DNA of 63,858 nt, from NCBI RefSeq assembly GCF_021028975.2, contig NC_059433.1, forward strand, positions 51,026,143 through 51,090,000, given 5' to 3'. The position numbers and the translations under genes are program-made. Source of the DNA: Sphaerodactylus townsendi (Eukaryota). This document shows, in pieces, positions 191 through 62,600 of the stretch (position 1 is its first letter; each line of letters opens with the position of its first letter). A model generated the notes under the pieces. It did not search any database. It was given only the letters and a program-made list of their open reading frames with translations, and was not told the origin of the DNA.

Positions 191-3100
191 ATAGATGAGA
201 AGGTGGTGTAATGGATGAGAAGGTGGTGTAATGGATGAGAAGGTGGTGTAAGGCAGAGGGTTTCAGATTTGTCAGGAACTGGGGAACCTTTTGGGACAAG
301 GTAGGCCTGTACAAACGGGACGGGCTTCATCTTAACCAAAGAGGAACCAGGCTGCTGGCGCTCAACATTAAAAAGGTGGCAGAACAGCTTTTAAACTGAT
401 CACTGGGGGAAAGCCGACAGGAGCTGAGGTGACTTCGGTTCGGAATACAGTATATATGGGGATGCAGACAGAGAGGGAGGTTTTTCTAAATCAACCACAT
501 ACAAGCGAGGAACATAGCAATGTGCATGTGACAAGGGATAGTGTCTACAAAGAGACTTGAGGGGTAAAGCACATAAGTCCCAGGTTGGGACAGAGACAGG
601 GTATACAGGTGTCTCTATGCTAATAGTAGAAGCATTCGACCTAAAATGGGGGAGCTAGAATACAGAGTTTTGAAGGAGGACTTTGATATAGTGGGCATTA
701 CAGAGACATGGTGGAATGAGGAGAACCAGTGGGATGCTGTTATACCAGGCTACAGGCTCTATAGGAAGGATAGGACAGGGGAGCACATTGGGGGTGGAGT
801 TACCCTTTACATCAAAGAGAGCATAGGTATCACATAAAATAGACAATGCAAGGGGAGCTGGTTCCCCCTACAGAATCACTGTGGATATCAATACCAGGTG
901 TGAAGGACAGTTTAATATTAGGAATATATTATCGTCCCCCTGACCAAAAGTGCACAAAGAGGATTCACAGGATGGAAAAAAAAGAAATTAGAGAGGCCAA
1001 CAAAAACAAAAATGCTTGGTGGTAATGGGTGATTTTAACTATCCCCATATAGAAACTGGAAAAATGCATGTTCAGGTCATAGTAAGGAGAGAGCATTCCT
1101 GGATATACTAAATGACTGTAACTTAGAGCAGATGGTTGTGAGACCAACCAGGGGAGAGGAGTGATCCTAGATCTAATTCTATGTGGGACCCAGGACCTGG
1201 TGCAGGAAGTCCCAGTGTTGTTGGGCAGAGTAGGGAGCAAACCACAATGCTGTCAGATTCAGGTATCTCAGCATGCAGACAAGTGGCAACTACTAATGTA
1301 GTTACATTAAGCCTTCAGAAAGGGAAATTTCTCAAAGATGAGAGTTAATGTGCGCAGAGAGCTGAAAAGGAAAATCAAGAGAGTCAAAACTATCCAGGAT
1401 GCTTGGAGGTTATTTAAAAAAACACAGTAATAAAAACTCAGCTGGAATGTGTTCCCACAGGTTAGAAAAAGGCAGCACCCAGTCCAAAAGAAAGCCACCA
1501 TGGTTAACAAAGAGAGGTTGAGGAAATTATCAGAAAAAAGAAAATGTCTTTTAAGAAAATGGAAGTCCAGTTTGTCTGATGAATAATATGAGAGGGAACA
1601 CAAATGGTGGCAAAAAAGAGAAGCAAGTTAGCTAGCAAGGGGAGGCAAAAAAAAGGATTATGAGGAACGCATGGCTATAGGCAACAAGACCAACAACAAA
1701 CAGTTCTTCAAGTACATCAAAAGCAGGAAGCCAGCAAGAGAAGCCCCGGTAGGCCTGTTAGATGACAAAAGGAACAAAGGGTGTGCTAAAAGATGGCAGG
1801 GAGATTGCAGAGAAGCTAAATGAATTCTTTGCATCTGTGTCTTCATAAGAGGAGGTGAGGAACATTCCTGCACCTGAACCAAAGCTTCTTGGGAGGCGAA
1901 TCCGAGGGAACTAGCAGAGATAGTGGTAGACAAGGAAGAGAAGTTCTGGCTTCCATTGATAAACTAAATGTGCAAATCCCCTGGCCCAGATTGCATTCAC
2001 CCAAGAGTGCTTAAAGAGCTCAAGCATGAAATTGCTGATCTTCTCACTTTAATATGCAACTTATCCCTGAAATCAGGCTCCATCCCTGAAGACTGGAAGA
2101 TGGCCAATGTCACACCAATCTTTAAAAAGAAAGGGATCTAGGGGGGGGACCCGGAAATTACAGGCCAGTCAGTTTGACATCTGTTCCTGGTAAATTAGTA
2201 GAATCTATCATTAAAGAATAAAATTATAAAACATGTAGAAAAGAAACAAGACCTGCTTGAGAAAGAGTCAGCATGGCTTTTTTGCAGAGGCAAATCCTGT
2301 CTTACAAACTTACTAGAGGTTCCTTTGAGGGGTGTAAACAGGCATGTGGACAGGGGAATTGAGACCGGTGGACATTAAGTCTACTTGGATTTCCAAAAGG
2401 CTTTTGACAAAGTTCCTCACCAGAGACTGTTGAAAAGGAAAAACTCAGCAATGAAGGGAATAAGAGGGGAAGTCCTCCCTATGGATTAAAAAACTGGTTG
2501 AGAAACAGGAAACAAAGAGTGGGTGTAAATGGGAAGTTCTCACAATGGAGAGATGCCGGGAGTGGGTGTCCCCCAAGGATCCGTTTTGGGACCAGTGCTC
2601 TTTAACCTATTCATAAATGAACTGGAGAGTAGGGGTGGAGTAAGCGTGGTGGCCAAGTTTGCAGATGCATACCAAATTATGTAAGGGTGGTGAGAACTCA
2701 CAAAGGGGATTATGGCGAAAGAGCTCCAAGCCGGACCTTGATAAATTAGATGAGTGGAGCTCAGAAATGGCAAAATGCAGTTCAATGTAAGCAAAATGTA
2801 AAGAGTAGTGATGCACATAGGGGCAAAAATCCAAACTTCACATACAACGCTTACAGGGGTCAGTGCTATCAGTCACAGACCAGGAAAGGGATTTAGGCAT
2901 CTGTAGTTGAAGTAGTTCCATGGGAATGTCAACTCAATGCATAACGCCAGCTGTGAAAAAAGGCAAACTCTATGCTGGGGATCATTAGAAAGGAAATTGA
3001 TAATAAAACTGCAAAGATTGTCATGCCCTCTTATATAAAGCAGTGGTCGCGAATCCGCACTTGGAGTACTTGTGTCCAGTTCTGGGTAAGCGCATCTCAA

Positions 3101-3732
3101 AAAGGATATTGAGGGAGATAGAAAAAGTGCAGAGAAGGGCAACTTAAAAGGGATGATTATTGAGGGACTGGAGCACCTTCCCTATGAGGAGAGGCTGCAG
3201 TGTTTGGGACTCTTTAGTGTGGAGAGGAGGTGACTGGGGGGGGGATATGATTGAAGTCTACAAAATTATGCATGGGGTAGAAAAAATGTTGACAGAGAGA
3301 AATTTTTCTCTCTTTCTCTCACAATACTAAGAACCAGGGGGGCATCTTGCATTGAAAATGCTGGGGGGAAGAATTAGGACTAATAAAAGGAAACACTTCT
3401 TCACTTAGCGTGCTTGATTGAGGGTGTTTGGAATATGCTGCCACAGGAGGTGGTGATGGCCACAAACCTTTATAGCTTTAAAAGGAGCTTGGACAGATTT
3501 ATGGAGGAGAAGTCGATTTATGGCTACCAATCTTGATCCTCTTTGATCTGAGATTGCAAATGCCTTAACAGACCAGGTGATCTGGAGCAACAGCCGCAGA
3601 AGGCCATTGCGTTCACATCCTACATGTGAGCTACCAAAGGCACCTGGTGGGCCACTGCGAGTAGCAGAGAGCTGGACTAGATGGACTTTGGTCTGATCCA
3701 GCTGGCTTGTTCTTATGTTCTTATGTTCTTAT
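191..3732 (+). mobile_element. CR1 LINE, 5'-truncated within ORF1, with full-length but frameshifted ORF2 (APE endonuclease + RT)
   Basis: ORF1 esterase C-terminus (GFRFVRNWGTFWDKVGLYKRDGLHLNQRG...LLN*, ending near 398). ORF2 endonuclease motifs (CLYANSRS, DIVGITETWW, GYRLYRKDR, YYRPP, GDFNYP) and RT motifs (YRPVSLTS, LDFQKAFDKVPH, VPQGSVLGPVLF, KFAD). The 3' end is a (TTCTTATG)n repeat at about 3710-3732, typical of CR1. Confidence 0.95.
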
Positions 3733-3785
3733 AGAGACTTTACCACTAGAGATGCTCTTTATTATCAAATAGGATGATCCCAACT

Positions 3786-4165
3786 GAAGAAGAAGGGTTG
3801 ATTTTTATGCCTCACTTTCCCCCTCTACCTTTAAAGAGTCTCAAAAGAGTCTCAAAAGAGTCTCAAAATCACCTTCCCTTCCCCTCCCTACCACAGGCAC
3901 CTTATGAGGTAGATGGGACTGACAGATTTCTGAAAGAACTGTGGCTAGTCCAAGGAAGATTCTGAATGGGCCAAAAATAGTGGTGCGGAAATGGTGTAAA
4001 ATGATTTAAAATGGTGTAAAAGGGTTTAAACCTTTTTCACACCTTTTTCACACTGCTGTTTTTGGCCCATGTGGAATCCCCCCAAGGCTATTCAGCAGGC
4101 TTCATGTATAAGAGTGGGGAATCAAATCCAATTCTCCAGATTAGAGTCAGCTGCTCATTTATATG
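3786..4165 (-). mobile_element. tRNA-derived CORE-type SINE (Squam3-like), interrupted by a MITE
   Basis: Similar to the SINE at 23569-23869 (ccttatgaggtag core, ggaatcaaatcc B-box complement, CTT-rich tail). Confidence 0.7.
3954..4082. mobile_element. Palindromic PIF/Harbinger-like MITE
   Basis: TIRs GGAAGATTCTGAATGGGCCAAAAA / GGGGGATTCCACATGGGCCAAAAA; 3-bp TSD CAA on both sides (3951-3953, 4083-4085). Confidence 0.75.
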
Positions 4166-4189
4166 CAACACAGATTTAGACTGAAACCT

Positions 4190-4441
4190 TTCCCCCATGC
4201 CATAGAGTTGCCACTTTGTGCCCCCCCCCCCCAACTACTCATCAATGCATCTGTGAAAATCACCACATTATGAGGGAACATACTTAGATCTTCCATTTTG
4301 GCTTTGGTTTCTAGGGATAGTGTAGAAGCCCTCAACCATGCATGATGTCTTAAGACCACTCCTCACCACCAGCCTTTTTGGTTCTTGACAACAGCATGGA
4401 GGGGAGATACGAAATAACTTCATTCTTCATGCCATGGTCTC
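4190..4441 (-). mobile_element. Degraded DIRS-like retroelement RNase H fragment (target of the hAT insertion)
   Basis: The minus-strand ORF contains VVIFTDALMSSWGGGAQ...AWGK, resembling the DIRS RNase H motif TDASxxGWGA. Confidence 0.45.
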
Positions 4442-5366
4442 CAGGGGCGTACCTAGGCAAACTGGCGCCCAGGGACAAAACCTGAGTTTGGCGCACCCCC
4501 CGCCTGGCGTATGGGTGCCCCCCCCCCCACCATGACCATGACAATGATTTTTTGTACCAGCTCACAAAACACCTCCCACTCCCAGCAAAACATACATGGC
4601 TCTCTCCCCACCAACTCTTTTCCTAATTTCCTAATCACAACAACCCTATGAGGTAGGTTGTTAGCCTGAGCAACAACTCCAAGCCATTTCTGAGGCACGC
4701 TGCACATTTTTGGGGCCCATAAAATTGAACCCCCAGAAGCAAAGGTCTCCAAACCTGGATGATATTACCAGGAGGCCCTCCTGGAGCCACCCTGAAAGTC
4801 TGGTGCCTCTATCTTCAAAAATGTGCAGCCTGCCTACACACTCAGAAATTCCCCATTGGCTACAATGGAGCAAAATCACTGCAAAACAAAGAATCTTGGG
4901 CACATTTCTTGGGGTGCCTGGAAGGGGTGTATTTTTAAAGCTAGTGACACCAAAATTTCAGGATATCATCTGTTAACTATTCTTATGATGCCACCCAAGT
5001 TTGGTGAAGTTATGTTCAGGGGGACCAAAGTTATGGTCCCTCAAATGGGTAGCCCCCATCTCCTGTTAGCTCCCATTGAAAACAATGGGAATGGGGGCAC
5101 CCCCTTTGGGGGTCCATAACTTTGCTGCCCCTGAACCAAACATCACCAAATTTGGATGGTATTATCAGGACAGTCTCTGGATGGTACCCTGAAATTTTGG
5201 TGTTGCTAGCCTTAAAAATGCGCCCCCTGCAGGCCGGAACGTGAAAAAACACTTTAAAACTTTAAAAACACACAAACAACCCTGAAATGTTGGCGCCCCC
5301 CCACGTGACTAAATGGGGGCGCCTGGGGACATAGGGTACCCCTGTCCCTAGGCAGGAACGCCACTG
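4442..5366. mobile_element. Non-autonomous hAT-type element (family A, 925 bp)
   Basis: TIRs CAGGGGCGTACCT / CAGTGGCGTTCCT; perfect 8-bp TSD ATGGTCTC (4434-4441, 5367-5374); internal long hairpin at about 4948-5202. Confidence 0.92.
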
Positions 5367-15894: not shown

Positions 15895-18494
15895 CTAAAA
15901 TAATTCCAGTTGGTGATGGGGGGAAGTAAGCATTTTAGAAGTTGCAATCATTGTGTATATACAGGAACACTTTAGTTCCATGCTGTGATTCAGCTGTGCA
16001 TATGCAGTTCCTATCAGATGATAACTGTGTTGATCAGCCATTTCTCCCAAATACCTGATTGGCACTATTGCTGTTACTAACTATTTGACAGAGCCACAGT
16101 TATTGAATAGATCTTTACAAATGCAGTCACAGTTGCTAGATTAGGATGGGGTGTAGTATGAATTTGTTTTAAAGAAGGTATGAATCCCAATATACAGGTG
16201 AGCTGATTAGAAATAAATACATTACCTTGAGTAAAAGGTATTTAAGGACAGCATCATCACAATAAAGGAATATACTGTTTTATGAAGGAAACAGAGTTAT
16301 AGCTTTAGTATCTGAAAAAATTGAAATTTTTACTCTGTGAATTGTTTATTGATGCATTCTACTGTTATTATTTTGTAATCCAGCTTTATTGTACTGTTTG
16401 TTGCATATATGAGGCCTACCTTTATTGTTTTCTTATTCTGTAATCCACCTCAAGTTTCAACAAGGCAGACTGTAAATGAAATAAATAAATAACGTACCAG
16501 ATCAATGCAATTGCAACATAAAAAAGCAAAGTCTATTTTTTCTTACAAAATTTAAATGATACACAGTTTCAGTAGAAAAAAATAGCTTCTGGTGGCGACC
16601 TGTGATTGCTGGAAGATGACAAATATAACTATATTCCAGTCACTGCTGTCACAGTTCTGCACAGCCTTGTTTATTTTTTAAAAAAATTCTTATTCAAAAC
16701 TTATGTTTACAACATTGTTATTATAGTATACATGTAGGAAATAATTATTATTATTATTATGGCCATGGTAAAAGATATGTACATGTGAGACAAGCAGAAG
16801 CGTATTGGGGGGAAATGGTGCCCAGAGACAACACTTTTGGGGGGCAGGGGCTTGGGGGCATGACTTGGGGGCACCAAGCCCTGCCCCCTGGCTTCCTTGC
16901 AGGCCAGTTCCTGAAGATGCCAGGAGCCGATCTGCACAGAGACTGGGGGGTGGGGCTTCAGGGAGGTATGAGGTGGGGCTTCAGGGGGTATGAGGTGGGG
17001 TTCAGGGAGAGGGTTCGGGGCCACCCGCCACCAAGTTATGCCCCTGGCCTCCATGCAGGGCCTGGGGATGCTAGGAGCCAGCCTGCAGGGAGGCCAGGAG
17101 GTGTGGTAGGGTGGGGTGGGTGGCCCAGGCAGCTGAGCCCCGCCCCCTGCCTCCCTTCAGGCCAGCTCCTGGGTGACTCCATGTCCCTATAGGCTGTATG
17201 CCTCTGGAGACAAGTATACAAACAGTCAGAGTTTAACTTTCATTTTTCTCTGCCACCTTTCCAAGCACTAAACACCTTGCCTGAAAGGGGAGGGGTGACC
17301 TATTAAGTCCAATAAATAATAATAAAAGTGGGCGCAGCTGCAGAACATGGTAGTAAATTTCCAGCAGTATACTGCTGTCTCTCACGTTCTTGGCTAGTAT
17401 GTTTGATCCTGAAGACAGACAGATAGGACTCAAAATGGTTCTGAGGATAATTTTATTGGACTGTTTTGGGAAGAGTAAAATCAAACTGCAAAAAACCTTA
17501 TTGCTATGATCACTTCAAGGAACTTTGCATGGCTTTTCTCTTAAGTTAGACATTAGGGGAAAGCAGTTTTGCAATCAACAAGACATACTTCTAAATAAAT
17601 ATGTTTAGGAATGAAGTGAAGATAACCAAGTTATATTGCTTCAACCACACAATGCATTGTGTGTGTGGTGTATTACATTAATACAACAGAAAATAGGTGA
17701 GAAGGAAATACTGAATATTATTACAGGTCTCAGTTTCATCAGGTAAACTATACGTAAATGCTTCTACATTCTATTTCACACTTCATTAAATAAAATTAAA
17801 CAGTTAGCAGTACAACATTGTAAATAGCTTGGCACTTCGAACTACTGTAGCAAGAATAACTTGTCAATATAGCTTTTAAAGACATTACACATAAAACTAA
17901 CATTTCAAATAGGAAAGTGAGAATTTGGCACAAACAAAATTCTTCATTTACTGCAAGACATAATGTTACATAATTGCTTGTAAAAAAAATGAAGTTACAG
18001 TGTGAAAAGTAAGAGATCACTTGTCCAAATAATACAAAAGACAAGTGGCACCTTCCATAATACATTCCACTATTCATCAAGTTTTTAAGGGATAGAAGAA
18101 TTATACTTCTAATCAATTAATTTAATCCGTGATTTTAAAAAAAAGAACAGGAAAACTTAACCTTTGTGAGCAGGTCAGTTTACTGGTCACAACGCCAAGC
18201 AATAATAAGCTCAGTAGCCAGGTCTCCAGATTGGCCCCAATGTATTTTGCAAATGTTTGCCCTTGTAAAAACTATCCTACATATTACACAGCCACTAGGT
18301 CAGAGAACAGATTTTACCTTTCAACTTGAAGTACAATATATAGAGGAAAATGTTCAGATGTTTCCAGAAAAATATGAATATGCATAGTGAGATAACATGT
18401 GTGCATACCATTCTCAAGGCCTAAACAGAATGAATCCCTGCATATAGAATAAATCTGTCAGTGTCAAACAAAACTATATTAAACTGAGCTCCAC

Positions 18495-24975: not shown

Positions 24976-26779
24976 AATATAGTTGAAGATGAAGGGATAT
25001 ACAAAATCACCTTGGTTGGTCAGTGGGAAGAAGAGAAGGAGGCAGAGGAAGTTGAGAATATAGGGGTGCCATGAAGAAAAACCATGGGGAGAGAGATTCA
25101 GGCAAAAATGAGATGAAACCCTGACAAGTTCTTGCAGGTTCCCCTTCATGCAACTTGGCCCAGCCCAACTTGGCTTCTGGGCCCAGTCCAATGACTGGCA
25201 CCACACAACCCAGCCAGATTTTTCCTGGTGTGAGGCTGCCAGTGGGAGGGGAAAGAGGGAAAGCTAAAGACAGGGAGAAAGTAAAAGTAGGTTGGCTGAT
25301 GGGTGGGAAAGAAAGAAGGAAGCAGGAAAAGGAAAAATGTTGCAGTGGAAAATTGAAATAATGGGGGAGAGGTAAATGAGATGCCTCCCTGTAAATCTTG
25401 GTGGATCCCCCTCTTGTCACATTTAAGAGCCATGATATTGTATAGTTTTCATATTTGGATATACAGAGCACTATTTTTAAGAGGAGATTAACTTAATACC
25501 AGGTGAAACTGCTCATTTATAAATCCTCTCCTGACCACATGCTTAGCAATATTTAACTCAAAATGTAATTTTCAATACACATGTTTTCTACTCAAAATGT
25601 CTATCATATTACATGTAAAAGTTATTGAATGGCCAGGGTATTTCAGAGAGGACTGCAGTTTCCTAATTAGCTGGTTTTCTTTGCCCTGCAGACTAAGTAA
25701 ATGGAGCTTTTAATGGAGAATTTTATAAAACATAATCTATTATCAACCAGTGTTGGACCACCAATCTATATTCTATGTCTCACACATCAAGCAAAACCTC
25801 ATTTTCATTCTAACTCCATGATATAGCCATACCTTTATATAACCTCTCCACCACCACCCCACTTCCATGGAAGTACCGAATCACTCAAATGGAGACGGAA
25901 GGCCTATCACAGACCAACCCAATTCATTTAGGCATGTTCCAGACCACTGAAATCAGTAAATCAGACTGAACCATAAAATCAACAGTGCTCACTGATACTG
26001 ATCTTTCTTGACTTGACTTTCCCCAACTTCTGGAGACCTTAGAACAGTTGATGCTGTAGTCACAAGACCTTCATGGATAAAATGCCTTGATGTGAGTGAA
26101 GAAGTAGTATCTGGACTGAAGAAGTAGCATCAATAAAGATCAAGTATCTCTGTCTTTTGACAAGCCAAGTTTTTGGTAGTGAAAAGAGGCCCCCCTGATG
26201 GAAGAGTGAAGTGTAAACAATTTCCCCTCATTCCTCCTTACAACAGCCCTTCAGTGTTTTAGGGCATTTTGTTCAAAGGTTCCTGACATCCAATATTAGT
26301 GTTTCAGAGGTCTCTGGATGCTGCTAGGGAAACTGGAACTCAGAAAAGATCCATTTGCAAGTTGCTATCAGTTTGAAGCAACTTGATGTATCAACTGATT
26401 ATAGATCAACATACCAACATGGTATAAAAATATCCAAGTGATAGTGGGCAGCCTGTTGCATGAGCAGGGGCAGGGAAACCCGGAAACCCCCAGTTATCAC
26501 TTTGGTGCATTGGCACCTACAGGAGCAACCAGGTGCCACAGAAAAAGACTGCAGACTGGAAACCTTTTTCACAGACCCCACAACCCGGTCTCCTTACTGA
26601 GCAAACAGAAGACTTGGGGTGGGGGGTGGCTTAGAAATGCCAGCGTATGGCTGGCATTGGTCTTAGAAAATCTTGGAAAGTTTTTCCAAGACTTTTCGGT
26701 ATCAGAGAAGAAAGGGGGGGGGGGGGGCAGAAGGCTCCTAAACACATCAAGAGCATGGATTCCGCCCAGCATCTCTATT

Positions 26780-27540
26780 GCAACTCGTTATAAAGAGACT
26801 GTACCGAATCCGCTCAAAGTTGCTTCAAAGAAATGGGCTGGGCGTGATCCCATCCACTGCGTAAAACGAGAGAAGAGGCGGATCTTGAAGACGCTCGCTC
26901 AGGCTCTGGAGTTCACCCGCTTCTTCTGCACAGGCAGAGCGGCATCAGCGCCCTCCGCTTTCCCGCCACCAGGCGCTCTTCTCTTTTGGCCCTTGCACCA
27001 CGAGGTCTCTCTCCCGCCTCCGCGCCTACACTCACCATCTCCAATCCGGTTCCACGGCTGGGTGAAGCGCCCGTTGCAGTTCGTGTTTTGCGTCTCCAGG
27101 CAACGACGGCTGTTTCGAAGACGCGCGTGGGGCGCTCCCCCGCTCTCCTCCCCTGCTCCGGCTTGCCGCCCCCACCCCTTTTCCTTCAAGCTAGGCGGCA
27201 CGTTTAGCTCTTTCAAAGTAGCTTGAATACTGTAAAAGACTCTACTGCAAACTACTGCAAATATTTTTCTCGGCACTCGAATAACGGCGTTTTCCAGCGT
27301 TGCTGTTTCAAAGTATACAGCCATAATGTTACAAACCAACTGGAAGAAATTGCAATAAATAAAACGCCGCTCACTGCGATCACACAGGGAACGGGAATAA
27401 TTCAGGCACGTCCCGTGGTGTCCCTTTATGCTACAGACCCTGAGGTTGTCACTTAGCTCTCGACACCTCACTTTATGTTCCCGAAAGGGGGAAAATATTT
27501 CCGTATTGCTTCTCTGTGTTTGAAACATACCGCAGGCTCT
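26780..27540. promoter_or_regulatory. CpG island, candidate main CCDC178 promoter
   Basis: CpG-dense unique sequence with RFX-like GTCTCCAGGCAAC (27092-27104), CCAAT (about 27041) and GC-box CCGCCCC (about 27166), upstream of the CCDC178 exons. Confidence 0.55.
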
Positions 27541-45100: not shown

Positions 45101-46724
45101 GATTTGCATCATTCTGTGTTCATCCATCATTCACAAGAGTTTGGTCAATTAATCTGGTTTTGATTTCCATATAACATTTTTAAGGATTTGAGTTTTAAAG
45201 AATTCCATTATGTCCTTGTGCTCTTTTGGCTTTGCTAGCAGTGTAGTCTTAGCTATAATAAGTTATAATGTACTTTCTGCAGACAAAATAAATTTAGAAG
45301 AGAGATTTTTATAGTATTATTGTCTCTGTAAAGTACTCAATTTTGCATGCTTTCTGTCTGTTCTACTTGTTCCTAATTAATTCAAAAAGCAGACATGAAC
45401 CATGAAGATTATTCTTTACTGATTATATTTAGTAATTATGACTGATATATTTTTCTTAGCATAAATGATGATAGCATAATCACTTAATATAATGAAATAT
45501 TTTTAATAATTTTGCAAAACCAAATGAGTGGGCAAAACCAGGGGGCCATAAAATGATAGTAGCTTTTAAATACACATTAAAATTCTTTCATTTCCCAAAC
45601 CAGTCTTTCTTATAGGTTTGTATTCTAATCGGCAATTGTAACCTAATGGCCAGTTGTCTAAATGACTGTCCTATAAAGCTTACAGCCCACAAACCTTTAT
45701 TACTTGTTATATAATGTCCTGCATTCTGCCTTATAGCCTCTTTACATGACCTTATGATAACCTCAGGACTTAAGGAAAGGAATTGCTTCATCCAATCCCA
45801 GAATTTTAGATTAACCCTTTACTTTTAAAAATGTGATTGTTGGGTGATGTAAATTTTTAGAACCAACACTTTACATTTAACTGCACTGTTTCTGAAAGTG
45901 AAAGGCTAACATTACATGGATGCATTGTTATATTTCTTTATGTAAAGCTAGTAATATAAACACTGTTTTGTGATTTTGCATATACTTATACAATGATTTA
46001 CAGTCCTCCCTGCCACATCACTATTTTCTACTTCAGTTTTCTAGATCTTGGGTAGAAATCTCCCAACAGAACCCTGCTGCCGAGCAGAGGCATTTCTTGG
46101 CAAACTGGAGCCCGGGGACAAAACCTGAGTTTGCCCCCCCCCCCCGGTATGGCCGGCCATCCTCCCCCACCACAACCAAACAATTTTTTTTGCACCAGCT
46201 CACAAAACATCTCCTACCCCCAGCAAAACATACATGGTTCTCTCCCCACCAGTTCTCTTTACTAATTTTGTCCTCACACCAACCCTATGAGGTAGGCTGT
46301 TAGCCTGAGAAACAGCTCCAAGCCAGTGCAAGCGGGTATTAAGAATGTAAATCTCTCATAAATCACCCCCAACGCAGCTCTACTACAGCTGACAAGGTTG
46401 AGTGGTGTCGCCAATCTGCCTCCCTTCCTTGCCAGGCTGTATACAGAGTTATACTGGATCATGGGCTTAGATTGGAGAACTCTGTATAGGACAGCACTGT
46501 TAATTCCTGGTGAAGTTGTTCAGATAGTGTAGTATAGGGACAATCTTGGAGATTTAATTAAATACGATGTTTGCATAATATCCTGATCATATGAAGACTG
46601 TCAAGCATATCCTATGGAATGGTTGAATATGTTTAATTGTAGGAAGAGACTTTACTCACAAATGTTTCGTGCTTGACATGAGACAGGCTTAATTATCAAT
46701 TAACATTTATTATGTCAAAGCTAG

Positions 46725-46980
46725 GCCTTACAACAGAACTTCAACAAGAAAGAAAAGATTCTGAGAATTAACAAAGCTTGGCTACCAGTATTTTAAAACA
46801 CCAGAATCAAAGGCCAAGGTCATGCAAACCCCACCCACAATCCAATACTATCAACCACATCTTTGCATAGCAAGTTCCACCCAAACACTTACTGATTTGT
46901 TCCCCTCCCTGGGACATGGACAATATATACCCCACTAAAACATTTCCTTCTCACTGGACACAGTGTGTAACAGACTTCTA
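46725..46980 (+). mobile_element. Penelope-like ORF C-terminal and UTR remnant inside the cargo
   Basis: Translates NRTSTRKK/NFNKKEKILRINKAWLPVF-like sequence, recalled as the end of the Penelope GIY-YIG domain. Confidence 0.45.
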
Positions 46981-48173
46981 TTTCAGGTTCCTCTTCATAC
47001 CTTCTGTTAAACAGCCAGCCTTACACATTTTTGCTGGTTTAATTTTTCCATTTGTAAAATTAACATCATTCTCTTCCACACTAGTCTTAGTAAACAGGTT
47101 AGAAATGTTAAACAAAATTAGTTGGCTCTAATTACAGGGTCTTCATATTGTCACACACATCAGCTTCATCCACTCTAGATGCAACAGTGTACCTGACTCA
47201 ACCGCAGGGACACCTCTGCCATTTTACTGATGAAGTGCCTACAAATGCTGCAAGCGACTGATCCTGATCAGGACTGCTGCAGTGAAGGGAGCGGCTCACC
47301 CTTGACATTTTCAGTAGACCAAATCACTGGCCCTTGAGCTTTTGAAAATGTTGCGGGGGGGGGGGCAAGCTCCTGTCCTCCCCTTCTTTGTGGGTTTAAT
47401 CAAGTTTTAAATATGGGTGGGCTGTGTCCAGATTTTTTTAGTTCCTTTACAGAAACAGAAACACTTAAACAAACAAGTACATTAATAAGAATAGAAGGGT
47501 ACAGAAGGTCCAAGCCTCTGCCTGATACTGGACCCTGATATATCAACTGTAGCTGATTAACTCATACATTCTGAACAATAACATGAAAAGGTAAAACTAC
47601 TTGCATCAAACAAAGATGCAAACTCTGTTCTAGTATTCTTGTTTAATTGGTATAGGAGAATATCTCTCTTTGGAGAATCCTGGCTCATCCCTCAGCTTTT
47701 ATATAGTTCTACAAACAGGAACCTGTTCACTTTAAGTGGCAAGGTGAGGACACTAAGATGCAAATTATGTTGGCTGGAACTGGAGGCCAGATCAGCTGAA
47801 AAGAAACAGGACAGACCAGGCCAAGAGAAGAAAAGTAAAGATTTGAGAAAACAGTATGTGAATGGAAAAAGGACTGACAAAGAGAAGGTTTATGACCAAA
47901 CTTCACTGGGATCCAACAAGCTAGGGGGTGCTACGTCTTTTAAGTAAAATCTTTGTGCCTTTAATTTATTACACTGCTTTCCCAAAAATTGCAACCTGAA
48001 ATCTACTTAGTTGAAATTCCAAGAATTGAAACTGGAGCTTGTAAGCCTCTCCTCAGCTTGGCTTACCCGCCGCCTCACCCACTGCAAGCGCCACTGGCCT
48101 TTGGAATGGGTTTTCCAGAAGCAAGCGTCACTGGCAGCGGATGAGGCAGTGGGCTGCAACTTGATGGCACTCA

Positions 48174-48175
<2 letters not shown>

Positions 48176-48237
<62 letters not shown>
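48176..48237. repeat. (AC)n microsatellite
   Basis: Direct observation. Confidence 1.
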
Positions 48238-48241
<4 letters not shown>

Positions 48242-48936
48242 CGATTGCATTGCTTACTGGATATCCCATCCTGTTGATGGCACTGTTTGGCCTTGGGTAA
48301 TCCACCTCCAGCCTTAGTGAGAAAGGGGGAATATAAACTTTGCCAATAAATACATGAATGAATAAAACAGCAAGCCAAATTATACAAGGTGAGAAGCTGA
48401 CAACACTTCCCTGTCACTGCTTGAATTGTGGTGGCAAATGTGTGTGTGTGTGTGTGGGGTGGAGGCTTTCACCATAGGGCCTTTATGAAAACCCTGGGGT
48501 GGGTTAACAGCCAGGGGGAGATTGGCTTTCTAACATACCAAGACCTCTGATGGGCCACTGCCCCGGGAACCTTCCAGTGGTCAAGAGCTGAGCTGACTGG
48601 ACCACAGGGGGCTAAAGATGCCATTGCCAGACCCCAGGTGGGACCTGGAGATCCCCTGGAATGACAGCTCCTCTCCAGACCACGGAGATCACTTCTCCAG
48701 GAGAAAACAGATGCTTTGGAGGCTGGGCTGTGGGGCATTCACCAGTGGTCTGGTGGGAGGGCAACACTACTGGGGGGGGGCGGGCGCTGTGTCCAGGGCT
48801 GCTTGAAACACCAGCCCTGTTCCCAGCTTTCTGCAAAGGCTTAGCAGCTGAAGAGCTGTGGGTTCCCTTCCTGAAAGCTCGCTGCCCACCCCGTCTGCTC
48901 ATTTCAGCTGGCAAGAAGAAAGAGGAGGGGGGGAGT

Positions 48937-48968
<32 letters not shown>

Positions 48969-49610
48969 GCAGCCAAACAGGCTCTGAAGGAGCAACCCAG
49001 GTCGCCCTCCTCCTCCTCCTCCTCCTCCTCCTCCTCCTCCTCCTCCTCCTCCTCCGCAAGGACAAAAAGCTGTCGTCCCCTGCGCGTAATCCAGCCTTGC
49101 ACCTGCCCAGCACCTGCCTTGCTAGAGTCGAACTGGCCTAGCGAGGAGAGGGGGAGGAAAGATGGACCAGCCCAGCCATCGAGCTGACAAACCTCTCCTG
49201 GTTCGCTGTGGCTGCCCCTTGGAGTCGTCAAAGGGACGCCCGTGCGCTCTCTGGGCGCAGTGCCTGTGGGCTTGGTGAGCGACCGGCAGGTTGGGCGCCT
49301 GCTGCACTCCAGGGAAGAAGCGGCACCTGGTTTTGAAAGGAGGCAGCGGCAACACCAGGGAAGGGCCGAGGGGGAGGGGGCATGGTGGCTGGCCGAGTGC
49401 CCTCCACCCCTCATTGCCAGGCCGGTCTTCACTTACCTGGTCAGCAGCCAAGCGCACCAGCAGCTGGCCTCCAAACATGCCGAGGTGGGGCGCAGTGCAG
49501 AGAGAAAGCGGGGCAGGCGAGGAAGGAGGGGCAGGGCGGCTGCAAGGTGTGTGGGGGAGACGGGCTGAAGTCTGCAGGAAGCAAAAGCCTGCTTCTTCCC
49601 ACCGTGCCTG

Positions 49611-49651
<41 letters not shown>
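48937..49651. repeat. Cluster of (GA)n, (CCT)n and (CTG)n microsatellites in GC-rich cargo
   Basis: GA at about 48937-48967, CCT at about 49006-49055, CTG at about 49611-49651. Confidence 0.95.
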
Positions 49652-49652
<1 letters not shown>

Positions 49653-50046
49653 GCTCCAGGGGCTGGCTCGACTTCCCTTCCCTGTGCCGGCCAGTCAGCC
49701 GAGGAGAAGGCAAGGCATGCTGGGTCGGAGGGAGGCGGAGCTCCCCGGCTTACTGGGAGCTGGGACTTGGAGCACACTACACAATGAGACTGGGCCAGTG
49801 GGCCACCATCCAGAGTGGGCGGGGCTGAGTTAGCCTGAGCCCAGTGGTGGTGTAAAGCTTGCTGGCAAAATGCTGCAGTTTGTGGGGGGACATTTTGGCG
49901 CCCCCCACGTGACAGAAATTGTTGCGCCCGGGGACAAGGGGTACCCCATGTCCCTAGGCAAATTCGCCACTGCTGCCCAGCTTACCTGGGGTCCTTGGGC
50001 AGGTGAGAGGCCAAGGAGGCGATAAGGCTGCTGGCAGGAGCCAACA

Positions 50047-51381
50047 TGGGAGAGATGGTAAGATGTTGCTTTTACATATACCAAAGAGGTGTTACTTTAA
50101 ATATATATGGGACAATGACAATGATTGCCTTATAAGTTATAAAGGAGGTATCATTAAGTGTTTTTATAAAGTGTAAGACTATTAAATATTGTAAATATAT
50201 TGTATGTAAATATGGAACTGAGAAAGAAAAACAAGACATATGTACAGTAGATGGAAGGGGTGTCAGAAAATGTAAGTTTGTAGGAGACATTTATTGCACG
50301 CATAGAGGCTGACTGACCCTGAGCAGAGTTGTAGAGATAAGATGTCAAAAGAAAGTATTGGCCTGGCTTCAAGATTAGGAAAAGTTAATTGGAGATGGGT
50401 ATGATGCTTATCCGGGCTTATCACATCCCATTTGAAGTTGGTCAATGACTAATTGGGATAGCAGAAGAAAAAGAGAACATAGTGACCTGTACAGAACACC
50501 AGCTCTGAGATAATAAGCAAAGAGAAGAATTTGCAAACAGAAGAAACAGGGGTCAAAAGTTTAGTGGGGAATAGGTAGCACAAAAGTTTATAAAATTATG
50601 TTGCTTTTATATTGAAGCTAATCATGAAACTTTAAGAATATGTTAATCACTCATGTTCAATGTATGTATCCTATGCTATTGGCATTGAATGTTTCATATG
50701 AATCTTTGTATAATCCTTTAATATGGTCAAAAGGAAGTGTTCCTCTCTCAGTTTGAAGTGTAAAATAGCTAAAAAGGCCTCTAGATAATAACTGTTTATC
50801 CTGAATATTGATTTATATCTTATATATTAACCTAGATATAAAGAAACACTTTAAAGTCTTTTTCTAAGATGCTTCTGAAGCCTGGATTCAATAGTCAAAG
50901 GAATGCAGGTCAAGAAGACCTAGGTTCTTGTGCCAAGAAGGCACCTGCTGATAAGAAGGCCCCTAACAAGCTTGTGATCGTGTTTTCAAAGCAGAAGAGT
51001 GGGTCAAGAAAAACTAGGTTCTTGTGCCAAGCACTAATGAAGGTTTGACAGCTAAGACAAACCAAAAATTAATTACAGGAAATGACCATATGGAGATGTA
51101 TTAATTGGAGAAGATACCACCTGGTATATGACATACCAGTAGTATGCCTAGATGAATTGTAATAGGCTGGGCCCTCTCATCTCATAGCCAATGGAGAGAT
51201 GAGGGAGGGATTGGGTGGTCCTGAAAAAGTAATATAAACTGCTGCAGAACAAAGGAACTGTGTGTCCACCACTGGGTGAGCACCCGGGCTTGCAAGACCA
51301 TAAACTAATAAAAGGTTTGTTAACTGCTTCATCAAATTGATCCAGAGTGTTTTTAGAGTTCTTAGACTAGCGTTTCTTACA
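50047..51381 (+). mobile_element. Solo LTR (about 1335 bp, ERV/Gypsy type)
   Basis: TG...CA ends (TGGGAGAGA / TTTCTTACA); 4-bp TSD AACA (50043-50046, 51382-51385); CCAAT near 51188, TATAAA near 51233, AATAAA near 51307; it interrupts a continuous GC-rich flank. Confidence 0.75.
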
Positions 51382-54292: not shown

Positions 54293-57200
54293 CAGGGGTG
54301 TAGCTAGGAAAAATGGAGCCCGGGGCAAAATCTGAGTTTTGCCCCCGCCCATGTAGACGACCACCCTCCCCAACCACAACCAAACAACAATTTTTTGCAC
54401 CAGGTCATTTCAGTCACCATCACATTGTAGAACATGCCCCAACTCACAAATCTGAACACAGCAATGGTTCATGCCACACAGTGGAAATATTGTTTTGACA
54501 TTTTCAAAATGTTTTATTACTGCTGAGAAAAAATATATAAAAATAAAACAAAAGGGCCCAAAAAGGAACTTCTAAATGGCTTTCATTTGTTTTCCTGCAT
54601 GACACTAACCCTAACCCTGTGATCCATGGGCAGGGAGGTGTGTTGGGGATGGAGGGGGGGGGGAGGCTGGCAGAGCTTGCAATTTGTGGGATGTGTTTGT
54701 ATTGCAAGCTGTTCTGGAGGACTCAGATGGTCAAAAAGATGGCAGTACAATATTTTAACAGTACAAATCAATGTATAAATATTATATGTACTTAATCAGA
54801 AGCAGATAAACACACTCCGACACTATCACTCAGGATCAGACAAAATCTTGATTTCAATACTAATGTCTTAACACAGTCCACTATTTTCTTGATGACATTT
54901 CTGAACACTGGTTAACCTCAAAGGCCAAAATATGGGGTATAAATACTTCCACAAAAAACAACCCTGGGCAAATACAGCACCTTCACCACAAGGTAAGGGG
55001 TGCTGTCTTTCCGAGTGTGTCCATGACCCTTCATATCCCTCTTAAGATCAGCATATGTTAAAGTTAATTGTAGACTTTCCTTCTTTTTATCACTTTTCTA
55101 GAGCAGCAGGTCCACAATGATGCTTACTGAACTGATGCAAAATCACCTTCTAAAGGTGTTTTGGAAGTGAGGCTAAGGGCACTATCACACATGAGAATAA
55201 TGCATTTTCAAGCCACTTTCAATGCACTTTTCAGCTGGATTTTACTGTGCGAAAGAGCAAAATCCACTTGCAAACAATTGTGAAAGTGGATAGAAAATGC
55301 ATTATTCTGGAAATGCCAAAGTGCCCCAAGAACAGTTCATACACTTCACGAAACCAACAGGATAGGCATTTAGCTAGCCAAAACACAACACATACGCACA
55401 CAATGGATTGACCAAATTGCCAATTTATCAGCACATCACAAAAAGAGAAAGACTGAAAAACCAACTTTAAAAAATACAGATAAAAACTCTCCTGGAGGCA
55501 CAGCACTATGAAAAACCACATGGACCCACACAGGAAGCAGCCTTATACCAAGCCAGACCTTTTGGTCTGTTGGGGTCAGCATTGCCCACTCTCACTGGAC
55601 ACAGCTCTGCTGGGTCTCAGTTGGAAAGTCTTCCACATAACCTCCTACTTGATTTTTTAAACTGGAGATGCCAGCAATTGAACTGGGGACTTTCTGAATG
55701 CCAACTAGATGCTCTTCCACTGAGTCATGCCCCCAAACTTCTCTCCTTCCCTCCCTTCCATAAAGGCAGAGGACTCCACAGAATCCTGACTTCTGCACAC
55801 TTCTGATTGGGGGCAGGGGTGTGTGTGGCTTTTCTGAATGTGCAAAACACCTTCCTGAGGGGAAAGTGGAAATATTTTATATTACAACCAATTGGAACAG
55901 TGTGTTTCTTTTTTACTTACATTTTTTTACCTTTCCTTTTTAAGGGAAACACGTCTATTTATTTGAACCCTTATTTATGTTGCTTACAAAGTGTAGCCCT
56001 GTGTGGAATGGGGGGAGAATGAAAGGAGAAAAGCTGACCCCCTCTTAACAGCCCAGCTCAATCTTAAACACACTTACTTGAGAGTAACTGCTACTGAATT
56101 CAATGGGATTTACTTCAGAGTATACGCTTCCAGGTTTGCACTTCAAGAGGTTCTTTTTAGTTGACTAGAAGAGGGATTTTTGGGAGGCAACTGTTTAATT
56201 GCAGTGGTTGAGTTTACCTTTGATGGGGATGGGTGAGTTCTGAGATAAAAACTGAAATCCCAATTCCAGAAAATGTGAAGTCCTGCTGCCCCAAACAGTC
56301 CAGAGTCCCTTTACTCACAAGCCGGTCCTGCTGAGCTCAGTCGAGCAAGCCCCCCCCCCTCTTGTCTGAGCAGCCCATGCACTCCGAGCAAGTCAGGGAG
56401 GTGAGAGGAAGAAGAGGATCGTTCAAAAAAAGTTTAAACAAAAAAAAAGGCCAAAACAAAAGCAGAGGGCAGCTCTGGGAAAGGACAGGAAAGGGGAGTT
56501 TCTTTCTCCCCTGCCCCCAAGATCTACCGTGAAAGGCGAAGGAGCAGGGAAGGGGAGAAGTCCAAAGCCCTTTGCTCTGTGCAACGTCCACAACAGCCAA
56601 GACACAAAACAAGGCACCAACTTCTGCAAGTAGCAGCAGGGAAACTGCGCGGAGGGAGGCTCGTGGGTCCCGGCAAATGGAGGGAAGCCTGGACGCCCCC
56701 CCCCTGCATTCTCACACACATGCGCTCACGCTCACACACCCTCCTCCGGCTGAATCTCGCCCCCAACCAGATCCAAATGCATCTCTGGCGCAAAACTGAA
56801 AGGGCTCCTTCCCCACTGTGGTCAGCCTCCCCTCCACTTGCTACCAGCACAACCTGGGAGACCCTCGCTTGGAAATGCAGCCCTTCTCCCCATTGTTCCG
56901 TCTGGACGCCCCCTCACCGTGTGCTGCGCGCCTCTCAGCCCTTGATGGGGGCGGCAGTGGCAGGGCTGGCAAACAAGTCAGTGCTGTGGCCGCTGGAGGG
57001 TCTGAGCCATTAAAAGTGCTGGGAGGCGGCGGCGGCGGCGGCGGCCACAGGCGGAGAAGGGAAGCGGTGGGAGCGGAGGGGGAGCGGCGGGGAAGGGTCG
57101 CCATGGCTAGGGCGAGCTCGCTGGCTCCCATAGGGAAAGTGGAGCCCAGGCGAGAAATGCAGGGCGGGGACGAAGAGGAAAGCCTCGCTGGTGAGAGAAG

Positions 57201-57467
57201 CAGGAAGTGGTCACTGCTGCTGCTCGTTGGCTGTCTCCCTCTTCCGCCCACCCCCAGCCGGCTGCCTGGAGGGGAGGCGGGGAGAGCACTCCCTCGGCTG
57301 GAAGCCAAAAGGCGCAGGCCTCCTCTCCGGCATCGTGCAGCCAAACCAAGCCACGCCCCTCCTCCTTCCCGGAAGTGTGCAGGGAATTTTTCCGCCCTCC
57401 ACGTGACCTTGCAAGCCTGCGCCCGGGACAAGCCGCCCCGGATGTCCCCGTTGGCGCTTTGCCACTG
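54293..57467. mobile_element. Large cargo-carrying hAT-type element (family A termini, 3.2 kb)
   Basis: Termini CAGGGGTGTAGC / CAGTGGCAAAGC; perfect 8-bp TSD CATTCCAT (54285-54292, 57468-57475). The left about 110 bp and right about 75 bp (CCACGTGAC...GCGCCCGGGACA...TGTCCC...GCCACTG) are homologous to family A ends. Confidence 0.88.
55177..55326. mobile_element. Palindromic 150-bp Harbinger-like MITE inside the cargo
   Basis: GGGCACT...AGTGCCC ends, TAA / CAA flanks, mostly self-complementary. Confidence 0.65.
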
Positions 57468-59699: not shown

Positions 59700-60232
59700 G
59701 AGGCAATATGCTATCATTAAAAAAAAGGCACAGGCGCGTTGCACATTGGGGCATGTAGTCTAGTCTTAATTGTTCCCCTTTATGTGTAAAACTAAAAGGG
59801 GAGTGGGGAAGGGAAAGAAATAGAGGGGACGGGAGTGGGTTGAAGAGAGGGTCTCCAGAAGCTCTCGCGAGATCTTTGAGAGCTCTTTCTTTTCTCTGTG
59901 TCTCGTGCGGTTTGCTCGCGAGCACGGCTGCCTTGGCTGGGATGTTTTGTACAGTCGCCATTCCCTTGTGTGACGTCATAGTGCATTGTTGTGACTTGCG
60001 TAACGGAGCATCCCTCAAGCTGTCAGCTGTGTCGCCGCCGCCGCTGCGGGAGCGCGAGCCCCAGCCGGCCCAGCCCTCCGCCTCCTTGTCTTCCTCCCGC
60101 CCCTCCCTCAGGGGTTCTAGAACTCCACGTCACCGTATCATTGTCTGTGCGGGACCCTCCGGCTCCCCCTCCCTCCCCCGTCCCTGCACGTTCCATCCCG
60201 CCCCCATAGAACCATCTCAATGAGATGCAAAC
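59700..60232 (+). promoter_or_regulatory. ASXL3: ASXL3 CpG-island promoter and 5' UTR
   Basis: CpG-rich; TCTCGCGAGA (59863-59872), GCTCGCGAGC (59914-59923), CRE TGACGTCA (59971-59978), TTGCGTAA (59996-60003). Confidence 0.8.
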
Positions 60233-61339: not shown

Positions 61340-62600
61340 TTGCCCCGGAATGGGTATTAAATGAGTTAGAGCACCACAAAAACTGTAGCATGTATTAGAG
61401 GCACTTCAGAACTACAATCTAGGGGGAAAAAACACAGAGACAACATGCATTTGTTAACCCTTTCGAGGCCAAAAATGCCTCTGGAACAGCAAAAAAAGCC
61501 CGGAATGGGCATTAAACGAGTTAGAGGTCCACAAAAAACTGTAACATGCATAAGAGGCACTCAAAAACTACAATCTAGAAAAAAATGCATTAAAAACTTG
61601 CATTTATTAACCATTTCCAGGCTAAAAATGCCTCCGAAACAACAAAAAAAAGTCCAGAATGTACCGGAACATGCATTAAACGAGTTAGAGGACCACGAAA
61701 AACTGTGGCATGCATTAGAGGCACTCTAAAACTACAATCTGGGAAAAAATGCACAAAAAATGTGCATTTATTAACCATTTCCAGACCAAAAATGCCACCA
61801 GAACAGCAAAAGAAGCCCGGAACAGCCCGGAAATAGCATTAAATGACCTAGAAGAACACAAAAAACAGTGGCATCCATTAGAGACACTCCACAACTACAA
61901 CCTAGAACAAAAAATGCGCAGACAACCTGCCTCTCGTACCCTGTTCCAGGCCAAAATGCCTTCAGAACCAGAAAGTGGCCTGGAACAGGCATTAAATGAA
62001 TTAGAGGACCCCAAAAAACTGATGTACGCATTAGAGGTACTCCAGAACTACAACCTAGAAAAAATAATACAGAGACAACTTGCCTCTCTTACTCTGTTTT
62101 GAGCCAAAATGCCTTCGGAGCCAGAAAATGGCCCGGAACAGCCCAGAACAGGCATTAAACGAATTAGAGGGCCACAAAATTCTGTGGTACACATTAGAGG
62201 CACACCAGAACTTCAACCTAGAACAAAAAACACAAAGACAACCTTCCTCTCTTATCCCGTTCCGAGCCAAAATGCCATTGGAGCCAGAAAATGGCCCGGA
62301 ACAGGCATTGAAAAAGCTACAGGGCAACAACATACAGAGGCATGCATTAGAGGCACTCCAGAACTACAACCTAGAACAAAAAACACAGAGACAACCTGCT
62401 TCTCTTATCTCGTTCCGGGCCAAAATGCCTTTGGAGCCAGAAAATGGCTCGCAACAGGCATTAAACCAGCTACAGGGCCACGAAAAACTGTGGCTTGCAT
62501 TAGAGACACTCCAGAACTACAACCTAGAACAAAGAATGCAGAGACAACCTCTTACCCCGTTCTGGGCCAAAATTCCTCAATAGCCAGGAAACGGTCTGGA
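61340..62600 (+). repeat. Tandem satellite, about 8 copies of a 153-164 bp unit, in ASXL3 intron 1
   Basis: The anchor ATTAAA...TTAGAG recurs at about 61356, 61511, 61675, 61838, 61991, 62154, 62307 and 62460; an inverted partial copy lies at about 62595-62673. Confidence 0.95.

Follow-up and report, generated by a model that had tools for sequence, protein, structure and literature searches.

A multicopy mosaic hAT element with a likely CCDC106 first-exon splice donor in a gecko genome

What has been captured by a transposon that carries a perfect splice donor upstream of a gene, from where was it taken, and does the donor matter to that gene? The question is raised by a 63,858-bp stretch of the Sphaerodactylus townsendi genome (GCF_021028975.2, contig NC_059433.1, positions 51,026,143 to 51,090,000; hereafter the window), in which a first-pass annotation had described a 3.9-kb element with a CAG-repeat exon whose donor points toward CCDC178. 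The coordinates and listed features of that annotation (repeats, donor, and ATG frame) are all present in the sequence. We find that positions 46085 to 49972 form one 3,888-bp nonautonomous hAT element. It is a recently mobile, multidonor Pack-hAT in which a donor likely derived from the first exon of CCDC106 is fused to the transposon's own leader. In the account that we consider probable, a nonautonomous hAT present at eight loci captured host DNA in successive steps and was then spread by a transposase that likely acted in trans.

One hAT element at eight loci

The element is flanked by an 8-bp target site duplication (TSD; CTGCCGAG / CTGCCCAG) with one mismatch, and alternative duplications of 7, 9, or 10 bp give 6 to 8 mismatches. 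This one TSD is shared by both ends, and the locus holds, as had been supposed, a single element and not two insertions. The terminal inverted repeats (TIRs) are short and imperfect (CAGAGGC / CAGTGGC); six of the first seven bases are complementary, and complementarity is weak further in. A short family member (4442-5366) matches 46085-46325 at 82% and 49889-49975 at 81%. Simple repeats comprise (TGC)13.7 at 49611-49651, (CCT)16.7 at 49006-49055, (GA)17 at 48933-48966, and (AC)31 at 48176-48237.

Copies with the same ends and cargo occur at eight loci of assembly G000 (contigs and loci of which are given as C and L numbers), and the homology between copies begins and ends at 46085 and 49972. 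Seven of the eight have both ends and their own distinct 8-bp TSD (six perfect and one with a single mismatch). Five copies are on C9, and the others are on C3, C1, and C14. The junction fillers served as diagnostic queries with all candidates scored: 48020-48170 returned 6/6 candidates and 49090-49240 returned 8/8. The GC-rich block and the left interior retrieved the same set of loci (40 candidates scored each). Six copies are full length (the window copy, L021, L022, L024, L025, and L026), L027 is internally deleted, and the left part of L023 disappears in a low-complexity run; a search of 20 kb located no left end for L023.

The best-assembled copies (window, L021, L022, and L023) diverge by 1.7 to 3.7% at aligned columns. 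In L024, L025, and L026, private differences reach 7 to 25% in patches versus 0.3 to 4% near the left end. This pattern looks like assembly error, and interior divergence between copies was therefore not used for dating. The CAG tract has 13 units in the window copy and 19 in L021, the remaining six copies having 3 each, and 46421-46658 is missing from four of the six full-length copies.

That the family is instead the product of two independent insertions, of segmental duplication, or of misassembly has next to no probability in our estimate. Two of the eight loci, L023 and L027, do abut long low-complexity G/C runs, and the patchy private differences of three copies resemble assembly error. 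However, copy homology is confined to 46085-49972 with a different TSD at each of seven loci, which refutes these readings, and independent public runs contain the GC block at 97 to 98% identity.

Several observations concern the surroundings of the copies. Kilobases of a G/C-only 39-bp-like repeat adjoin L023 (1-5600) and L027 (5650-10000) and are probably an assembly artefact. The L027 copy (3062-4603; G000:C1:87.52 Mb) lies in opposite orientation to a WD40 gene, which we take to be TAF5L-like, and approximately 190 bp from its last coding exon. Lone interior fragments of 270 to 460 bp without family ends are present at L041/L042 (G000:C16:29.24 Mb) and L043 (C1:4.55 Mb); one is 98.5% identical across the junction between the interspersed repeat and the C6 piece (see below), and the fragments are possibly secondary captures out of the element.

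Assignment to hAT was made through coding relatives. A sister element, L145, carries a hAT dimerisation domain and as a query returned long transposase frames. One of the relatives is complete: G000:C4:44524515-44538628, of 14,114 bp, has a perfect TSD and an open frame of 967 codons containing PF14291 and PF05699. Its ends are 70 to 73% identical to those of the window element, and the strand of its frame makes window position 49972 the 5′ end. The TSDs point to likely mobilisation of the window element in trans by a hAT transposase, and the C4 element is a candidate helper or domesticated gene. Upstream of the 967-codon frame (L249, L177, and L178) lie approximately 7.7 kb with many other repeats, possibly a long first intron. 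Further transposase frames span 872 to 1042 codons, and three transposase loci cluster at C3:12.97-13.05 Mb.

In its 5′ region, the C4 element agrees with the window element in subterminal sequence and CAG-rich block as far as a TTTTGC(C/T)T motif; it lacks the cargo. Because a complete transposase-coding relative carries this block, the CAG tract is the transposon's own leader, and a host origin of the tract is ruled out. The CAG-repeat exon proposed as the captured unit is accordingly not supported, as the CAG block is transposon native and the (CCT)n and (GA)n tracts grouped with it come from C12, another donor locus. The cargo limits, placed at about 46325 and 49893 from similarity to the short member, need revision as well: the similarity is as described, but 49591-49972 is transposon native and 46203-46439 is found in sister families.

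Four matching loci and a likely captured splice donor

Approximately 70% of the element (∼2.7 kb) matches four unlinked low-copy loci on C15, C12, C6, and C3 (Table 1), and every single donor covers at most 27% of the element. Over 49217-49590, ungapped identity to the C15 donor is 84.0% (273/325). Divergence from the donors falls away from the 5′ end, identity rising from 84% to 88% and then to 93 to 94%; the gradient suggests serial capture, and the element may thus record the order of capture events. None of the four donors has paired element ends or a terminus within 100 bp, and no terminus-like 22-mer was found within 5 kb on either side of the C15 donor. With the C15 island as the query, all 15 candidates matched (the island itself and 14 partial matches), and the inspected loci are element copies except L223.

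Table 1. Features of the element and its flanks, in window coordinates
Feature	Position	Strand	Remarks
Left TSD, 8 bp	46077..46084	+	1 mismatch versus right copy
hAT terminus, 3′ end in transposase orientation, transposon native	46085..46202	-	73% to terminus of the 14.1-kb element G000:C4:44524515-44538628
Older filler, also in sister families of hATs and in the short member (4442)	46203..46439	.	Absent from transposase-coding element
Two pieces, order swapped, matching G000:C3:45568352-45568551 and C3:45567406-45567510	46440..46732	+	179/192 and 98/105, both 93% ungapped identity
High-copy interspersed repeat fragment	46733..46973	.	Many matches, mostly 92-96%, several contigs
1.07-kb piece matching G000:C6:55810233-55811292	46974..48038	+	986/1046, 94.3% ungapped identity
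Junction filler, specific to the 6 full-length copies	48039..48147	.	Holds 33-bp inverted match just beyond C12 donor
0.97-kb piece matching G000:C12:23893227-23894195	48148..49117	+	735/833, 88.2% ungapped identity
Junction filler, confined to the 8 family loci	49118..49216	.	
Likely start of CCDC106 intron 1 (G000:C15:30177479-30177689)	49217..49436	-	∼220 bp
Likely 3′ part of CCDC106 noncoding first exon, ends in donor	49437..49590	-	ATG at 49478
Transposon-native 5′ subterminal region with CAG-rich block	49591..49888	-	
hAT terminus, 5′ end in transposase orientation	49889..49972	-	
Right TSD, 8 bp	49973..49980	+	Pairs with left copy

Three tracts, (CA)n, (GA)n, and (CCT)n, derive from the C12 piece; they have expanded in the element, being short at C12. 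The C12 match lies approximately 13 kb upstream of the CpG island of a gene with a BTB domain, presumably ZBTB16-like from its translated sequence. At C6, no recognisable long frame was found in 70 kb and none is conserved through the piece, with no protein search made. No source of the two ∼100-bp junction fillers was found beyond the 33-bp inverted C12 match, a trace that replication template switching could leave.

The matching C15 sequence is a CpG island. The start codon of CCDC106, placed at C15:30175072 by mapping squamate CCDC106 proteins, lies 2.6 kb downstream of the donor and on its strand. Two exons downstream of the match score as PF15794 (Pfam). A strong acceptor 1.2 kb below the C15 donor opens a stretch that matches the predicted CCDC106 N terminus of another gecko (two short hits with an E value of 0.002 each, in a 3.1-kb subject). 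The neighbors form a cluster of genes that we take, from their translations, to be zinc-finger, U2AF2-like, and EPN1-like. As judged from these sequence features, the C15 piece likely comprises the 3′ part of the noncoding first exon of CCDC106 and ∼220 bp of intron 1.

The consensus donor reported on the minus strand (CAG/GTAAGT, 49431-49439) is present and descends from this piece; the host reads CAG/GTAAGC. Since the 9-mer alone is no rarer than chance (one occurrence in the window versus 2.6 expected from shuffles), the significance of the donor rests on its homology to the host donor. The frame MFGGQLLVRLAADQ, which opens at the ATG at 49478, is likewise present in the window copy, and a 3-nucleotide insertion in it is private to that copy. 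The element reads ATG and GTAAGTG where the host reads GCG and GTAAGCG, both differences sitting at CpG-to-TpG changes, and at the ATG site the host and diverged relatives read GCG or ACG. Because the ATG and the perfect GTAAGT sit at decayed CpGs, the proposed captured coding start (MFGGQ...) is rejected: neither the host nor diverged relatives have the ATG, and the CCDC106 start codon lies 2.6 kb further downstream.

The captured donor is not restricted to the window family. A 25-letter pattern around it has 19 sites at one mismatch or fewer versus 0 in a reversed control. Of these sites, one belongs to the host, 17 lie 373 to 549 bp downstream of a hAT 5′ terminus, and one is without a terminus; the 17 terminus-linked sites divide into 6 of the window-element family and 11 of a family in which most of the exon is deleted and the donor is kept. 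The C15-type exon is also carried by L028, which has its own TSD, and by L030 and L032, which have a different terminus type. Because the C15 donor is common to several hAT families, the C15 capture predates the other captures, in agreement with the divergence gradient, and L030 and L032 suggest that the exon cassette passed between hAT subgroups. In L030 (2828-5191; G000:C4:48.73 Mb) and L032 (2853-4231; C5:82.74 Mb), the CAG block and CCDC106-like exon are followed by a 154-bp tandem array. These two have the terminus CAGGGGTCC...; the TSD of L030 is poor (3/8 mismatches), and it is uncertain where L032 stops on the far side.

Direction of capture and relation to CCDC178

Similarity to the C15 host starts where similarity to the transposase-coding element stops, around a common TTGCC(T). 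Compared with 14 element 5′ regions, the 90 host bp immediately upstream of the junction gave no match (z ≤ 1.1, 60 shuffles), and the nonrepeat part of the C15 query matched 0/15 of the transposase loci examined by BLAST. CpG decay is polarized: 11/29 host CpGs at C15 read TG or CA in the element versus 0/16 the opposite way, and the corresponding counts at C12 are 8/18 and 1/11.

In the reverse direction, the exon and donor would be native to an old hAT lineage and CCDC106 would have exapted an inserted copy, with the other cargo still captured. Consistent with such exaptation, at least 17 elements from two or more families retain the donor with approximately 45 bp of surrounding sequence, the end of the host exon has a weak match to the transposase-coding element, and the retention of CpGs in the host is compatible with either direction. 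We nevertheless regard it as unlikely, given that no terminus lies within 5 kb of C15, that host similarity ends where transposase-coding similarity starts, that none of the 15 transposase loci match by BLAST, and that the same element demonstrably holds other low-copy genomic pieces.

Several points weigh against capture as we describe it. The direction of transfer of the CCDC106 5′ untranslated region (UTR) is inferred and unrooted; the exon status of the C15 island is a prediction from sequence; and exaptation of a transposon piece into an unmethylated promoter would give an identical CpG polarity. The match between the 3′ part of the host exon and the transposase-coding element is local and weak (score 34, z 5.4), as is a match between the farther host upstream region and L033 (score 32, z 3.8). 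Several DNA searches scored 40 candidates each. A lone, unpaired hAT-like terminus remnant 438 bp left of the C12 match weakens C12 as a pure host locus, and C12 could be an older element relic. Finally, the likely empty site of organism B is read from the join at the right flank.

Stepwise capture from the host remains our preferred reading, and its mechanism may be outlined as follows. First, a template switch at a short shared TTGCCT-like sequence would have taken a deletion derivative out of its own CAG-rich 5′ region and into the CCDC106 CpG island, fusing the transposon leader to the 3′ part of the host exon with its donor and ∼220 bp of intron. Later template switches would have added the C12 piece and then the C6 and C3 pieces. 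As possible microhomology, TTGCC(T) is common to the transposon-native and host sides of the C15 junction, and the other junctions are short or have fillers. The finished 3.6- to 3.9-kb unit would then have transposed recently, often along one chromosome (five of eight copies on C9). CpG decay inside the element likely would have yielded the ATG and the perfect GTAAGT, and the microsatellites would have expanded afterwards, copy by copy.

Four sequencing runs were compared with 49056-50800. Organism B contigs match the GC block at 97 to 98% identity. A further contig, of 2,726 nucleotides, meets the right flank precisely at 49970; since CTG ends both flank and terminus, this is the position at which an empty site would start. 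With 40 candidates scored, the first 68 flank bases matched nowhere else. Cargo orthologous at this locus, named beforehand as a refutation, was not seen in organism B, where this contig resembles an empty site at the right flank join. In organism C, one 589-nucleotide contig over 49084-49701 has a depth of 415 versus 24 to 38 for flank contigs, which suggests many near-identical copies, although depth is not copy number. Two organism B RNA runs (∼6% and ∼19% read) have a depth of 0 to 1.6 over 49056-49704, too shallow to decide on splicing, with no joint or loose end at 49437 among the rows listed.

The element lies between CCDC178 and the first exon, near 60230 on the plus strand, of a gene that from its translation is presumably ASXL3-like. 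The closest homologues of the window's CCDC178 are gecko proteins (88 to 96% identity). Its coding exons map to the minus strand (15880-15737, 12552-12457, and 6009-5809), downstream of 49437, and the donor is therefore on the strand of CCDC178, as the first-pass annotation had it. Could the window copy then be a working alternative first exon, with a transposon promoter and splicing from 49437 to an acceptor near 15897? It has the right strand, a position upstream of a first coding exon that has an acceptor, and a perfect donor, and at least 30% of the Pack-TIRs of three species are found in chimeric transcripts according to Tan et al. (2021, PMC8277862; also the basis of the Pack-TIR comparisons below). 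Still, 33.5 kb separate the donor from the first coding exon; the element itself holds, downstream of the donor, five pyrimidine-rich AG acceptor-like sites and seven poly(A)-like hexamers; 26751-27500 is a CpG island that has a minus-strand donor of its own (though 87 to 90% copies of this island also occur on C3); the insertion is young and may be absent from organism B; and the CpGs of the element are decayed, suggesting methylation. A first-exon role is unlikely. For CCDC178 the window copy has no established role and is most likely a passenger; its donor, if used, would more likely splice to a nearer predicted acceptor inside the element, such as one near 48907.

The island belongs to a 1.6-kb stretch (25867-27472) with strong CpG content and a minus-strand donor, for which 87 to 90% copies are present on C3 (2.04 and 3.27 Mb). 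It could be either a duplicated CCDC178 promoter or another moved piece, and because of the C3 copies, 26751-27500 is unconfirmed as the native CCDC178 promoter. Elsewhere in the window, a tandem array of 153- to 164-bp units occupies 61344-62550 in the first ASXL3-like intron.

A second, unrelated cargo-bearing hAT lies at 54293-57467, with an 8-bp TSD and, near 56310 on the minus strand, a donor-like site; its 5′ block is GC-rich. At least ∼25 loci match long parts of it at 71 to 93% (40/434 candidates scored); L240 matches end to end at 96%, and L244, L246, and L247 match parts, with no ends detected. Only ∼110 bp of terminus is common to the two elements, and the element at 46085-49972 accordingly represents a second, independent capture of a likely gene 5′ region, as first proposed. 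One 64-kb window thus holds two unrelated multicopy cargo-bearing hAT families, with 8 loci and at least ∼25 matches, respectively.

Comparison with known capture systems

A literature search found no gene-capturing hATs in geckos; most subscription papers and the supplements of PMC8277862 fell outside its coverage. Among 281 Pack-TIR cases in 100 animal genomes, 4 are reported as multicopy, and most animal capture is concluded to be independent of transposition (PMC8277862). Frog Pack-hAT-N8_XT, for example, carries 291 bp of the CAPSL 5′ UTR (PMC8277862). Like the multicopy Pack-TIRs, the window element has hAT ends around an interior that is not transposon sequence, has distant parents, and likely includes a gene 5′ UTR; several copies that differ in their TSDs and hold GC-rich cargo; parents not flanked by the element under the 100-bp rule; and an interior within 100 to 5,000 bp (PMC8277862). 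The proposed route, template switching followed by transposition, is also the same (PMC8277862). It differs in being a four-donor mosaic from four contigs, with ∼2.7 kb captured versus a median captured size of 224 bp, in having 8 copies versus 3 and 5 in two frog cases, and in that its oldest captured piece is common to several families (PMC8277862). Tan et al. required one parent with ≥90% identity over 80 to 120% of the interior length, whereas the window element has four parents at 84 to 94% identity, each covering at most 27% of the element (PMC8277862). Of the Pack-TIR features that could be compared, the window element departs, as a mosaic, only from this single-parent detection cutoff. 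Single-parent filters would miss mosaic elements of this kind.

Pack-MULEs are Mutator-type elements with long TIRs and a 9- to 11-bp TSD, and those of rice show multigene chimerism. The window element is no Pack-MULE and differs in its short imperfect TIRs, its 8-bp TSD, its transposase relative with DUF4371 and hAT dimerisation domains, and its vertebrate host. It resembles rice Pack-MULEs (PMC5861414) as a nonautonomous TIR element that duplicates GC-rich host sequence to unlinked sites; a Pack-MULE TSD of 8 to 11 bp is given there (PMC5861414). The capture of promoters and exons by bat Helitrons (PMC4224331) is a further parallel, in which a vertebrate DNA transposon amplifies host gene fragments. 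Helitrons are rolling-circle elements, whereas the window element is a cut-and-paste element with TIRs and TSDs.

A more far-reaching view is that geckos run a Pack-MULE-like hAT system in which promoters are fused to captured CpG-island exons with live donors, the cassette crosses families and termini, amplification continues in relatives, and mobile first exons arise, one of them for CCDC178; we think it rather improbable. Capture by template switching followed by transposition becomes testable in an amniote whose genome also contains an intact transposase frame and whose close relatives likely show presence/absence differences. Relative to the known multicopy Pack-TIRs, what is new is the multidonor cargo together with the presence of the same captured donor in at least 17 elements.

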